From Escherichia phage vB_EcoM_EP32a: DNA of 64,000 nucleotides. The stretch lies in sequence record OR544954; one strand, written 5' to 3'. This document shows, in pieces, positions 5,909 to 44,392 of this stretch. The translations under genes and the position numbers were made by a program. The stretch's first letter is position 1. The number at the start of each line of letters is the position of its first letter. The notes under the pieces were generated by a model. The model made no database searches and was not told the origin of the DNA. It worked only from the letters and a program-made list of their open reading frames with translations.

Positions 5909-6594
<686 letters not shown>

Positions 6595-6671: not shown

Positions 6672-6959
6672 ATGAAAACCTATAAAGAATTTATATCACC
6701 TGTTGCTAACGTTTCTACTCTGACCGAAGCATCCCTTACTTCTGAAGTTATTAAAACAAATAAAGGACGTGAGGGTAAACCAATGATTAGTCTGGTTGAT
6801 GGTGAAGAAGTAAAAGGTACTGTTTACTTAGGGGATGGATGGTCTGCTAAGAAAGATGGCGCTACTATTGTTATCTCTCCGGCTGAAGAGACTGCACTGT
6901 TTAAAGCTAAGCATATTTCTGTAGCTCAGCTTAAAATTATTGCAAAAACTCTTCTGTAA
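6672..6959 (+). CDS. ipI: internal protein (ipI-like) with capsid targeting sequence
   Basis: N-terminal MKTYKEFI is the T4 CTS consensus; 95 aa, same as the T4 IPI precursor; T4 ipI position after 57B. Confidence 0.7.
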   Translation: MKTYKEFISPVANVSTLTEASLTSEVIKTNKGREGKPMISLVDGEEVKGTVYLGDGWSAKKDGATIVISPAEETALFKAKHISVAQLKIIAKTLL

Positions 6960-7216: not shown

Positions 7217-7579
7217 ATGAAATATCACGTATATGCTGATTTTGAAGCAAATCCTTCTAAAGACCCGGATTGTCGTTTGATACGTAATCCGTTTGATTCA
7301 GCAGCTCAAGCATGGACTTGGATTAAATCTAAATCGCCTGGTTATATGTTCTTTGAAGTAGTCGATGACAATGGTACACTGCATCCAGAACCTACAGAAA
7401 CTATTAATTTCCTTCTGTTTGCTGGTTATGACTGTTATCCTCTTGGTGGTATTGACGACCTTGTTGCTACAGGAAAAACTGTTGAGGCTCTTCGCGAAAT
7501 TTATAAAAACGCAGAAGAAAATTTTGACTGGTATCATATTGTCAGTGCACATACTTTTGAAGTGGTGGAACACTCATGA
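7217..7579 (+). CDS. hypothetical protein
   Basis: 120-aa ORF, ATG preceded by GGTGAG. Confidence 0.5.
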   Translation: MKYHVYADFEANPSKDPDCRLIRNPFDSAAQAWTWIKSKSPGYMFFEVVDDNGTLHPEPTETINFLLFAGYDCYPLGGIDDLVATGKTVEALREIYKNAEENFDWYHIVSAHTFEVVEHS

Positions 7580-7646
7580 TTCTTTACGCTAAAGTAAAAT
7601 CTGTCGAGAACGGATATGAAAGCGACTAGTCGATGACTATGGTATT

Positions 7647-7847
7647 TTGACTAATTTTGAAGTTGAAAAGGTTTATATCGACCGTTCATCTTCGCAAGTT
7701 AAATTACTCTGTGAAGATGATAAATTTAACACAGTGAACTTTGATTTCTTTATTGAAACAGAAAAAGGCCCTCTTGAATATGATATTTTCAAGAATCCTT
7801 TGAAATTACGTTGCATTGAATATAATTACATTAATATGGTACGGTGA
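7647..7847 (+). CDS. hypothetical protein (TTG start only)
   Basis: 66-codon ORF with no ATG; weak. Confidence 0.25.
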   Translation: MTNFEVEKVYIDRSSSQVKLLCEDDKFNTVNFDFFIETEKGPLEYDIFKNPLKLRCIEYNYINMVR

Positions 7848-7851
7848 TTAA

Positions 7852-8367
7852 ATGAATATTCGTTTAGGCAGTACAATTCCTAAGGGCTACGTAATTGATG
7901 TCACTACCTAGGAAAATGATGGTGACAACTATAAAACCAAAACATTGTTTGAAGTGGAAGAGCATGAGCTCCAACAGTTTAAATATCTCTTGAAGAAATT
8001 TAAGAGTCGTCATTCTAGCACTAAAGCCGAACGTTATTGTGGTAATACACCATTCAGTGATTGCTCGCTTTTAATCTATGAATACTTGGTTGAAGGGCTG
8101 TTCTCAGACCAGCTTTATCCAGAATTTATTAAAAAGGTCTTTGATATTGAAGTCGACCTCGGTAATAAATCTGAAGAAGACGAAGCGCGTGTATTTGACC
8201 TGTTCCATGAGAATGGATATTTAGTATCAGAAGGTCTCATTGATATTCTTGGCCATGCTTCTGAATACTATGATTACGATTTCTTGCGTGTAGTTGAACG
8301 TGTCGAATTTGCTTATATTGAAGAAGAAATCGTTTTGCCAACCGTTAAAATGGTTGATTTGCTTTAA
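7852..8367 (+). CDS. hypothetical protein, reading frame interrupted by in-frame TAG at 7909-7911
   Basis: ATG 7852 with GGTGA SD opens MNIRLGSTIPKGYVIDVTT, then TAG, then the same frame continues ENDGDNYKTKTLFEVEEHELQQ... to 8367. Confidence 0.4.
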
Positions 8368-8446: not shown

Positions 8447-8520
8447 GGCCCTGTAGCTCAATGGTTAGCAGCAGTCCCCTCATAAGGGAAAGGTTACCAG
8501 TTCGAATCTGGTCTGGGTCA
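8447..8520 (+). tRNA. tRNA with CAU anticodon (Met, or Ile-AUA if lysidine-modified)
   Basis: Manual cloverleaf fold: acceptor GGCCCTG/CTGGGTC, T-arm ACCAG-TTCGAAT-CTGGT, anticodon loop CTCATAA; D-stem imperfect. Confidence 0.7.
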
Positions 8521-8526
8521 TATATT

Positions 8527-8603
<77 letters not shown>

Positions 8604-9320: not shown

Positions 9321-9623
9321 ATGAGTCTTTACACTGAACTGAATAAAAAATCTGAAGAATCTGCTGAAACTATTTTTAAAAACGTGCAAAAGCGTATTTT
9401 AGAAAAGATGTATAACGCTGCAGCTAAAGGTGAAAAATCTTGCCGGTTTCCGATTAGGTGTTCTTCCGATTTATGCGCAAATACTATTGAATGGTTGGAA
9501 AGTGAAGGTCTTACGGTAGAGAAAAACCCGGCGACTTCTATTGGCAGTGAATCATATATTAGTATTTCTTGGGATAAATCAACAAAATTAAAAATAATGA
9601 TGTACAAGCACCAAGGATGGTGA
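9321..9623 (+). CDS. hypothetical protein
   Basis: ATG after GAGGAAAA; 100 aa. Confidence 0.5.
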   Translation: MSLYTELNKKSEESAETIFKNVQKRILEKMYNAAAKGEKSCRFPIRCSSDLCANTIEWLESEGLTVEKNPATSIGSESYISISWDKSTKLKIMMYKHQGW

Positions 9624-14839: not shown

Positions 14840-14967
14840 TATGAATAGTTCTAAAGTGTTTAATAGTCAAGCTCGTGCAGTAGGTGGTTTTGCTCACGCG
14901 ATTAAAAATGACCAGATTAAAAACGAGCCTATGTTCTTCAACTGTAGTATTTGATTCACGAGTCCAT

Positions 14968-18351: not shown

Positions 18352-18891
18352 ATGAGAACATTTTTAACTGGACCTTATCTATCCCTGATGAATGCTTTTA
18401 CACACCATTCTGATGCTAGAGTAGAAGAAATTTGTAAGAACGGTTATGTCCCGCCATTTGAAGAAGTACTCAAGCAGTACTGTACACTTCGTTTAGACGG
18501 CGGCCGACAATCCGGTAAATAAATTGCTGTGACTAACTTTGCTGCTAATTGGCTGTATGATGGTGGAACAGTTATTGTTCTTTCTAATACTTCAGCTTAT
18601 GCTAAAATTTCTGCTGGCAACATTAAAAAAGAATTTTCTCGTTATTCTAGCGATGATATTCGATTCCGTTTATTTACTGATTCTGTTCGTAGTTTTATTG
18701 GCAATGAAGGTTCTAAATTCCGTGGATTAACGCTTTCTCGTATTCTGTATATAATTGACGAGCCTATTAAAGCTCCTGATATGGATAAGATTTACAATGT
18801 ACATATTAAAACAGTCCAACACTGTTGCAAAAGCAAATATTGCATCGGCGGTAATGCTCGTCCTCAATTTTTTGTGATTGGAATGCAATGA
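18352..18891 (+). CDS. putative P-loop NTPase interrupted by in-frame TAA (18520-18522) directly after the Walker A lysine
   Basis: ...LRLDGGRQSGK-TAA-IAVTNFAANWLYDGG...ILYIIDEP in one continuous frame; GxxxxGK is followed by a stop where S/T is expected; Walker-B-like IIDE downstream. Confidence 0.4.
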
Positions 18892-32714: not shown

Positions 32715-32738
32715 GACCTGCGAGAATATTTTAAATGA
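32694..32738 (+). repeat. tandem direct repeat 2 x 21 bp (CTGCGAGAATATTTTAAATGA) separated by GAC
   Basis: Copy 1 is the last codons and stop of nrdC; copy 2 supplies the ATG of the next ORF. Confidence 0.85.
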
Positions 32739-42649: not shown

Positions 42650-42875
42650 TTATGAAATCCATCGTCATGAATTTAGTATTGGTGACGGTTATATTGGTAT
42701 CGTTGAATGGACCGAGAATTACGAGGAATCAACTCCTCGTTTCTTTGGAACAATGTATGTTACCTGTGAGTACGCACCAGGTGTTGTTATGTATGCAGAA
42801 CTAGATGAATATTTTGCTGATAGAGATGACATGTTAAAATATGTAGAGGACTTCATTCGAAGAGAATACATATGA
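42636..42875 (+). CDS. hypothetical protein (46.x position)
   Basis: 79-aa ORF. Confidence 0.45.
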   Translation: MTKTDYEIHRHEFSIGDGYIGIVEWTENYEESTPRFFGTMYVTCEYAPGVVMYAELDEYFADRDDMLKYVEDFIRREYI

Positions 42876-44392
42876 AATCATTTAAATTAAATCGTGTTCG
42901 TTATCAAAACATCATGTCGGTAGGTGGGAATCCTATTGATATCCAATTAGATAAAGTCCAAAAGACATTAATCACTGGTAAAAATGGCGGTGGTAAATCT
43001 ACGATGTTAGAAGCCATTACTTTCGGACTTTTCGGTAAACCATTTCGTGATGTTAAGAAAGGACAAATCATTAACAGCACGAATAAGAAAGAGCTCTTAG
43101 TTGAGCTTTGGATGGAATTCGATGGTAAAAAATACTTCATTAAACGTGGCCAAAAGCCCAATATTTTCGAAATCTCCGTTGACGGTGTTCGTCTTGATGA
43201 ATCTGCCAGCAGTCGCGACTTCCAAGAAGAATTTGAACGTAGCATCGGAATGTCATACGCGTCTTTTAAACAAATCGTTGTGCTTGGGACGGCAGGGTAT
43301 ACCCCTTTCATGGCTCTTAGCACCCCTGCTCGTAGAAAACTTGTCGAAGACCTTTTAGAAGTCGGCACACTCGCTGAAATGGATAAAATCAATAAGTCTC
43401 AAGTTCGAGAACTTAATTCCCAGGGACAAGTTCTCGATGCCAAGAAAGATGGTATTATCCAACAAATTAAGATTTATAACGAGAATATCGAACGTCAAAA
43501 GAAATTATCTGGTGATAATGTAGCGCGTCTACAGAATATGTATGACGACCTAGCCAAAGAAGCTCGTTCATTAAAAGCAGAAATCGAAGAAGCTAATGAG
43601 CGACTACTTAATATCGTTCTTGACGAAGACCCTACTGAGGCATTCAACAAGATAGGACAAGAAGCATTCTTGATTAAATCTAAAATTGACTCATATAACA
43701 AAGTTATTAAGATGTATCATGATGGCGGTACATGTCCTACTTGTGCATCACAGTTGCACCAGGGTGATCCTATTGTCTCTAAGATTACCGATAAGCTTCA
43801 CGAATGTAATCACTCATTCGAGCAACTTACATGTCACAGAGATAATCTGAGTGTCCTAGTGGACGAATATAGAGCTAATGTTAAGACTAAACAGGACCTT
43901 GCATCTGATATTCGCACCAAGAAACAAGCAATGATTGCCACTATTGATAAAGCTAAGAAAGTTAAAGCTGCAATAGAGCAAGCCTCAGCAGAATTTATCG
44001 ACCATGCCGATGAGATAGCTTTGCTTCAAAAAGAACTTGATAAAATCATTAAAACAAAATCAGATATCGTTCTTGAAAAATACCATCGTGGTATTATCAC
44101 AGATATGTTAAAAGATTCTGGTATTAAAGGTGCTATCATTAAAAAATATGTGCCTCTGTTCAACAAGCAGATTAACCATTATCTTAAAATCATGGAAGCT
44201 GATTACGTGTTTTCTATTGATGAAGAATTCAATGAATCTATAAAATCACGTGGTCGTGAAGATTTTAGTTATGCTTCATTTAGTCAAGGTGAAAAAGCGC
44301 GTATCGATATCGCATTGTTGTTTACATGGCGAGATATTGCTGAAAAGGTCTCTGGCGTTAGAATCAACAAACGTGTTCATTATTTGTCATAG
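42872..44392 (+). CDS. 46: recombination endonuclease subunit gp46 (Rad50/SbcC-like), frame broken near 44366-44372; the H-loop segment continues in another frame to 44471
   Basis: Walker A GKNGGGKST, coiled coil, signature FSQGEKARIDIAL; after ...VSGVRIN the frame stops (KRVHYLS*), while the shifted frame reads TNVFIICHRDHDPQAYGQHLQMSKVGRFTVMTVS; no Walker B/D-loop between signature and H-loop. Confidence 0.85.
   Translation: MKSFKLNRVRYQNIMSVGGNPIDIQLDKVQKTLITGKNGGGKSTMLEAITFGLFGKPFRDVKKGQIINSTNKKELLVELWMEFDGKKYFIKRGQKPNIFEISVDGVRLDESASSRDFQEEFERSIGMSYASFKQIVVLGTAGYTPFMALSTPARRKLVEDLLEVGTLAEMDKINKSQVRELNSQGQVLDAKKDGIIQQIKIYNENIERQKKLSGDNVARLQNMYDDLAKEARSLKAEIEEANERLLNIVLDEDPTEAFNKIGQEAFLIKSKIDSYNKVIKMYHDGGTCPTCASQLHQGDPIVSKITDKLHECNHSFEQLTCHRDNLSVLVDEYRANVKTKQDLASDIRTKKQAMIATIDKAKKVKAAIEQASAEFIDHADEIALLQKELDKIIKTKSDIVLEKYHRGIITDMLKDSGIKGAIIKKYVPLFNKQINHYLKIMEADYVFSIDEEFNESIKSRGREDFSYASFSQGEKARIDIALLFTWRDIAEKVSGVRINKRVHYLS

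Follow-up and report, generated by a model that had tools for sequence, protein, structure and literature searches.

The window, the whole 64-kb stretch of Escherichia phage vB_EcoM_EP32a DNA that we analyzed (64,000 nt; sequence record OR544954), comes from a Mosigvirus, an RB69-like T-even coliphage, and the 2-kb region treated here is 92 to 96% identical to more than 100 such genomes. The closest phage record is APCEc01, with 97.9% identity over the first 25 kb of the window. On the plus strand, we found a 516-nt frame (7852-8367) that consists of 19 sense codons beginning with the ATG at 7852-7854, a TAG at 7909-7911, 151 further sense codons, and a TAA at 8365-8367 (Table 1). An earlier note on this DNA had described an ATG at 7852 led by a Shine-Dalgarno (SD) element, a TAG after 19 codons, and a frame then open to 8367, and these coordinates were confirmed on the sequence. 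The first 19 codons (7852-7908) encode the peptide MNIRLGSTIPKGYVIDVTT. At the base composition of the window, the probability of a stop is 0.071 per codon and that of a 151-codon open stretch is about 1.4e-5; only about 0.04 stretches of this length are expected by chance in the six frames of 64 kb, and therefore the open frame past the TAG is not a chance occurrence.

Table 1. Features of the locus at 7852-8367 and its neighbors, and disrupted or deleted sites elsewhere in the window
Feature	Position	Strand	Gene or region	Remarks
19-bp deletion	junction 7625/7626		tRNA.2 (Pfam Phage_T4_Y07B, phrog_2023) homolog, 7576-7629	frameshift; TAG 7627-7629, codon 18
Shine-Dalgarno-like GGTGAT	7843-7848	+	upstream of conserved start ATG 7852	
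Start codon and first 19 codons	7852-7908	+	RB69ORF151c/APCEc01_155 homolog	N-terminus conserved
In-frame amber TAG, codon 20	7909-7911	+	RB69ORF151c/APCEc01_155 homolog	sense codon in relatives
Stranded 3' part, 151 sense codons and TAA	7912-8367	+	RB69ORF151c/APCEc01_155 homolog	open, without its own start signal
tRNA-Met (CAT)	8447-8520			ARAGORN
tRNA-Arg (TCT)	8527-8603			ARAGORN
Deletion	~9309			about 520-770 nt vs all four reference genomes
86-bp deletion	junction 14942/14943		APCEc01_172, phrog_1843 homolog, 14841-14954	frameshift; TGA 14952 after 37 codons
Deletion	~18247			about 705-970 nt vs all four reference genomes
Ochre TCA to TAA	18520-18522		APCEc01_182, phrog_1488 homolog, 18352-18891	codon 57
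Deletion	~19865			about 350-410 nt vs all four reference genomes
Deletion	~30556			102-130 nt, in-frame, vs all four reference genomes; extra length varies among references
291-nt loss	32716		interior of APCEc01-specific ORF insert	
Deletion	~38866			219 nt vs all four reference genomes
89-bp deletion	junction 44369/44370		gene 46 (SbcC/Rad50-like), 42872-44392	TAG 44390 after 506 of 562 codons

The frame aligns without gaps to the 516-nt annotated genes RB69ORF151c of RB69 and APCEc01_155 of APCEc01, which encode a hypothetical protein of 171 amino acids and lie between tRNA.2 and the tRNA-Met/tRNA-Arg pair. The gene order ipI, tRNA.4, tRNA.3, tRNA.2, RB69ORF151c homolog, tRNA-Met, tRNA-Arg is shared by the window, RB69, and APCEc01, and it recurs in 20 further contigs found by look-up of the IpI and Acb1 proteins, all of which have a 171-amino-acid call for the RB69ORF151c homolog. 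By hmmscan, the gene belongs to phrog_2290 (function unknown), with an E value of 4.4e-66 and residues 1 to 170 matching positions 1 to 164 of the 165-position profile. The family had no match in Pfam or the literature and no fold relative in the PDB. As DNA, the gene is 95 to 96% identical to annotated 516-nt genes, and the part past the stop (7912-8367) is still this close to the intact homologs. Two unannotated copies of the family gene were found in relatives: one in ECCR664 (OL631257.1, 677-1194), which carries an independent 1-nt frameshift, and one in vB_EcoM-ZQ3 (677-1195), which is intact.

The SD-like element upstream of the ATG matches the 3' part of the extended SD consensus AGGAGGTGATC at six of six positions and shares bases with the TGA (7845-7847) at which the tRNA.2-homolog frame ends. 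RB69 and APCEc01, in which the gene is intact, have the same start arrangement, GGTGAG-TAA-ATG. Past the stop, the first start-type codon in frame is the TTG at 7945 (codon 32), as the earlier note had pointed out, and it is followed by the GTG at 7954, the TTG at 7990, and the sole in-frame ATG of this part, at codon 168. The mechanical list of open reading frames shows only a 140-amino-acid TTG-initiated ORF here (7945-8367). The 20 nt before each of the codons at 7945, 7954, and 7990 are A-rich and contain no SD sequence of the GGAG/GAGG type.

A census of the family in a collection of 5.8 billion proteins returned 22 members, down to 28% identity. Of these, 21 begin at the upstream Met, the remaining one being a 109-amino-acid fragment on a 2.6-kb contig, and none of the 22 starts at the position equivalent to the TTG at 7945. 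The N-terminus is nearly identical in all Mosigvirus homologs and still recognizable at 28 to 30% identity, and the best-conserved block of the family is formed by residues 19 to 29, T19-x-E-N-D-G-D-N-Y-K-T (TT-x-ENDGDNYKT), inside which the stop falls. Homologs that start at the downstream TTG, or a lack of conservation of the 19-codon piece, would have spoken against a nonsense mutation; we found instead that the homologs use the upstream Met and that the piece is conserved and leads into the best-conserved motif. The normal start of the gene is thus the ATG at 7852, and the frame is a nonsense allele of it.

To describe codon 20 in relatives, we collected 27 distinct intact alleles from 29 intact copies, which came from phage records and, by way of neighboring proteins, from contigs in NCBI, ENA, and Logan. 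All 27 have their ATG and TAA at the same positions as the window. Codon 20 is TAT (Tyr) in 18 of these alleles, TGG (Trp) in 8, TCG (Ser) in 1, and TAG in none, with TAT present in RB69 and TGG in APCEc01. None of the 20 related contigs is closer than about 96% in this region or has TAG at codon 20. No exact protein match was obtained for the 140-amino-acid TTG-initiated ORF or for the tRNA.3 homolog, the latter under two start choices. Among phage records, a 69-nt query around the stop found 62 that are at least 95% identical and none that is 100% identical, and neither a 41-nt query, built so that each megablast seed has to span the TAG, nor a 28-mer across the TAG had a match there. A degenerate pattern with the TAG in it likewise had no match in JGI metagenome contigs or in IMG/VR, the latter being a search of low power with only two family members present. 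Among the collections searched, the TAG allele is thus private to vB_EcoM_EP32a.

The flanking haplotype points to the origin of the stop. The codon before it, codon 19, is ACC, as in most TAT alleles, whereas ACT stands there in all TGG alleles examined; residue 34, after the stop, is Glu, as with most Tyr alleles, although one Trp allele (L029) also has Glu. Because the ACC and E34 match the TAT haplotype, a TAT-to-TAG change, by a T-to-G transversion at 7911, seems the most parsimonious route, as judged from these flanking positions only. The stop could also have come from a TGG-to-TAG change or from intracodon recombination of a TAT with a TGG allele.

Within residues 8 to 31, which are otherwise invariant, variation is confined to codon 20, a tolerant aromatic/small position. 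Mosigvirus alleles encode W, Y, or S there, and L and G are found in addition among the more distant, Dhakavirus-like relatives. A single base change separates TAG from each of TAT, TGG, TCG, and TTG, and only one other codon could likewise serve as a one-step intermediate between the common Trp and Tyr alleles. These features would fit a selected loss of function, for example by escape from a host defense, or a TAG caught in transit between the W and Y alleles, and we consider such an origin very unlikely. Sites with three or more states are not rare in the gene (15 of 171), selection cannot be demonstrated from a single allele in a single genome, and Pfam, PHROG, PDB fold, and literature comparisons gave no link of the family to defense.

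The rest of the gene speaks to the age of the lesion. Compared with APCEc01, there are 18 synonymous and 7 nonsynonymous codon differences (counting the stop), a pattern that marks purifying selection in the past. In a comparison with eight relatives, the gene has just two other private substitutions, at 8097 and 8127, both synonymous, and the 151 codons past the TAG contain neither another stop nor an indel. With so few other private changes, the inactivation of the RB69ORF151c homolog would be very recent, unless the stop is a sequence error. The proposal of an amber mutation or recent pseudogenization in the earlier note is thus supported, both by the use of the ATG at 7852 in homologs and by the small number and synonymous nature of the other private changes.

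In our judgment, the frame at 7852-8367 is probably a private, very recent amber allele of a dispensable Mosigvirus accessory gene, the RB69ORF151c/APCEc01_155 homolog. A single T-to-G change at 7911 would have turned the TAT (Tyr) of codon 20 into TAG, and the phage would tolerate the loss of the homolog because the gene is nonessential. The independent frameshift in ECCR664 suggests that the gene may indeed be dispensable. The fact that the TAG allele is unique among all sequences examined could also indicate a sequencing, consensus, or assembly artifact, in which the true codon 20 is TAT (or TGG) and the G (or A) is erroneous. We regard such an error as unlikely, in part because the window diverges by about 2% from its nearest relative and so contains many real private single-nucleotide polymorphisms, which makes a real nonsense polymorphism in a dispensable gene likelier a priori than an error that chances to produce a stop.

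We also considered whether the stop is bypassed and the product still made, by reassignment or a suppressor tRNA, by hopping of the T4 gene 60 type, by frameshifting, or by reinitiation at the TTG at 7945. The fully open frame past the stop is compatible with such a bypass, but the evidence at each step makes it extremely improbable. Conserved genes in the window are terminated by TAG in 7 cases, TAA in 72, and TGA in 37; across 133 reference coding sequences (CDS), the codon 20 TAG is the only in-frame TAG that was not made by a frameshifting deletion. ARAGORN found just tRNA-Met(cat) and tRNA-Arg(tct) in the 64-kb window, and no suppressor tRNA with a CUA anticodon. Recoding or reassignment of TAG was rejected since TAG ends seven conserved genes and the window lacks a suppressor tRNA. 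Frameshifting was rejected as an explanation because the downstream ORF is in frame 0. Reinitiation at the TTG at 7945, the GTG at 7954, or the TTG at 7990 was rejected because these codons lack an SD and are used as a start by no homolog, and because the conserved motif would be missing from the product.

Hopping has a superficial appeal. The ACC at 7906-7908 directly before the UAG is matched by an identical in-frame ACC 27 nt further on (7936-7938), an arrangement that resembles the take-off and landing codons of T4 gene 60. These two triplets are, however, the codons of the conserved residues Thr19 and Thr29, and both are likewise ACC in TAT-haplotype relatives such as RB69. The local hairpin at the stop has a minimum free energy of -11.1 kcal/mol (z = -0.96), with 32 of 200 shuffled sequences folding at least as well, and its sequence, the stop base aside, is that of intact TAT-haplotype relatives such as RB69. 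A hop from ACC19 to ACC29 was rejected because the hairpin is not significant and because the gap encodes the conserved ENDGDNYK motif, so that hopping would delete residues 20 to 28 or 29, the most conserved part of the family.

The intact Tyr allele closest to the window was modeled with AlphaFold at high confidence (mean pLDDT, 90.4; pTM, 0.85). In the model, residues 12 to 21 and 26 to 35 form an N-terminal beta-hairpin, and strand 12-21 has residue 20 at its end. A product starting at residue 32 would lack both this hairpin and the conserved motif. In a sup0 E. coli host, ribosomes would start at 7852 and release a 19-residue peptide, so that the first modeled beta-strand would be cut short at residue 19 and the rest of the protein would not be made. 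We infer that this peptide is the only product in such a host and that the gene is functionally null there. Among E. coli suppressors, supF inserts Tyr at amber codons and supE inserts Gln. A supF or supE laboratory host would be expected to allow partial read-through, with insertion of Tyr, which restores the wild type, or of Gln.

We also compared all 133 annotated CDS of the syntenic 67 kb of APCEc01 with the window. Between 117 and 119 of these are present there at full length and free of stops, and 1-nt indels are not scattered through the sequence. Four other genes are disrupted by clear lesions (Table 1). The 19 bp that are missing at 7625/7626, in the tRNA.2 homolog directly upstream of the amber gene, are kept in 26 of 26 relatives examined. 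The phrog_1843 gene hit by the 86-bp deletion encodes 228 amino acids in relatives. The ochre at 18520 replaces the Ser of a P-loop-like GGRQSGKS motif. The 89-bp deletion in gene 46 takes out the LILDE (Walker B)/D-loop region, and the H-loop is no longer in frame. None of the junctions or sites at 7625/7626, 14942/14943, 18520, and 44369/44370 is present in any phage record or in the four reference genomes, the ochre having been tested in phage records with a 28-mer.

Since the adjacent tRNA.2 and RB69ORF151c homologs are each cut after 17 to 19 codons, about 0.7 kb of RNA upstream of the tRNA-Met and tRNA-Arg genes is probably untranslated, and Rho-dependent polarity on these tRNA genes is therefore possible.

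Several larger losses were also seen, those at about 9309, 18247, 19865, and 38866 being private deletions (Table 1). The lost ORF insert at 32716 is flanked by a 22-nt direct repeat, CTGCGAGAATATTTTAAATGA, of which the window retains both copies, whereas the natural empty site of this insert in TH58, phiEC1, and mar005p1 has a single repeat copy. None of the tested junction 41-mers of the larger deletions occurs in any phage record. Relative to APCEc01, the window shows deletions only. Relative to three further genomes, it shows insertions too, and the sites at 9583 and 30556 prove to be ordinary variable regions; the insertions relative to more distant genomes are normal mosaicism. We counted 5 clearly disrupted CDS in the window, compared with 0 in phiEC1, 1 in mar005p1, and 3 in TH58, the last being an NCBI "UNVERIFIED" record. 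The idea that the window is grossly abnormal was dropped on account of these insertions and variable regions and of the 0 to 3 disrupted CDS in the control records. The load of disrupted genes is elevated but not of a different order.

Gene 46, which encodes a recombination endonuclease subunit, is needed for normal T4 growth. Because the deletion in it is disabling, this lesion raises doubt about whether the sequence is a faithful copy of a viable phage, and it serves as a warning that the sequence may come from a laboratory-passaged or defective population or may hold assembly faults. This lesion and the excess of disrupted genes are the further points in favor of a sequence artifact at codon 20. 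Against it, the sequence is otherwise clean, and the clean 19-, 86-, and 89-bp deletions together with a second substitution are not the typical error profile of a sequencing platform. We prefer a general mutational load, with a sequence artifact being less likely. Counting the amber, at least five private lesions disrupt genes in the window, and the amber therefore belongs to a general inactivating load of the lineage or the sequence, with no dedicated amber mechanism.

The same set of lesions bears on a possible history of isolation or propagation on an E. coli K-12 host that suppresses ambers, in which the TAG would be silent or leaky and could have drifted to fixation or been selected deliberately. 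Strains of E. coli K-12 with supE44 or supF include DH5alpha, C600, and LE392. According to the host column, DH5alpha or Top10 served as the propagation host of several Mosigviruses in the collection, the supF reading of a TAT-to-TAG change would restore the wild-type Tyr, and the neighboring tRNA.2 homolog also ends at a TAG, brought into frame by its 19-bp deletion. The other nonsense lesion is an ochre, however, the 19-, 86-, and 89-bp deletions are frameshifts beyond rescue by suppression, and an accessory gene without known function is not a classical conditional-lethal target. With an ochre and deletions beside the amber, the pattern does not point to a purpose-made amber lineage; we consider this history improbable, and a laboratory origin is not specifically favored as the cause of the amber.

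The loss or breakage of many accessory genes in this lineage also speaks for selection as a cause. If the TAG was selected, or is in transit at a hypervariable site, the shedding or breakage of about 10 other accessory segments could reflect escape from defenses that sense early proteins, in nature or in the laboratory. We find this a highly doubtful account and retain the recent amber allele of a dispensable accessory gene as our reading of the locus.

This allele can be set against several known systems. The conditional-lethal collection of Epstein et al. from 1963 reportedly consisted of amber (UAG) mutants of T-even phages grown on supD, supE, or supF hosts. Like these classical mutants, the allele described here would be a one-base change from a sense codon to UAG, with a product that is truncated in a sup0 host, restored by supF (Tyr), and altered by supE (Gln). 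Unlike them, it affects a gene that appears to be nonessential, shows no sign of mutagenesis or selection on a suppressor host, and is accompanied by an ochre and frameshifting deletions that are not suppressible. In essentials it matches the young pseudogenes of the hyperplastic accessory regions of T4-like phages, being likewise a private inactivating lesion in a small early-region ORF beside a tRNA cluster. As in the decay of T4-like accessory ORFs, the same gene carries a frameshift in ECCR664, and gene presence and absence differ throughout the region; relative to ordinary decay of this kind, the only notable aspect is the number of disrupted CDS in the 64-kb window, 5 compared with 0 to 3 in the controls.

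The resemblance to bypassing in T4 gene 60 is one of form only, a sense codon before a UAG with an identical in-frame codon downstream (ACC19 and ACC29). Unlike T4 gene 60, there is no significant take-off hairpin here, the gap consists of the most conserved residues of the family, and the homologs have a sense codon at the position of the stop. Reassignment of TAG to Gln occurs in crAss-like and Lak phages with suppressor tRNAs. The window shares with TAG-reassigned phages an in-frame TAG inside a conserved phage ORF, but here the TAG is a single case, it terminates seven conserved genes elsewhere in the window, and relatives have a sense codon. The phenomenon is a textbook one and involves no new mechanism.

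On this reading, this Mosigvirus could do without the RB69ORF151c-family protein, and probably without its tRNA.2 neighbor too, which would make both dispensable accessory genes. The stretch at 7852-8367 is better annotated as a pseudogene than as a 140-amino-acid TTG-initiated ORF. Given the unusual load of private inactivating mutations, that in gene 46 included, the annotation of this sequence and its use as a reference need checking against the reads.

Upstream of the tRNA.4-tRNA.2 block, two other genes are intact: an Acb1-family homolog (6139-6594; PF23474, an anti-CBASS phosphodiesterase, at the T4 57B position) and the gene for the internal head protein IpI (6672-6959; PF11634). Many public contigs encode proteins identical to these two; the collection lists the Acb1-family protein in 351 index blocks and IpI in 93. 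Downstream of the RB69ORF151c homolog, the second tRNA is Arg(tct) in most Mosigviruses and Asn(gtt) in vB_EcoM_WFL6982 (L006, 1377-1448). The first tRNA is called Ile rather than Met in some records (the MZ501056 and MZ501047 annotations), which is probably an issue of how CAT-anticodon (lysidine) tRNAs are called.
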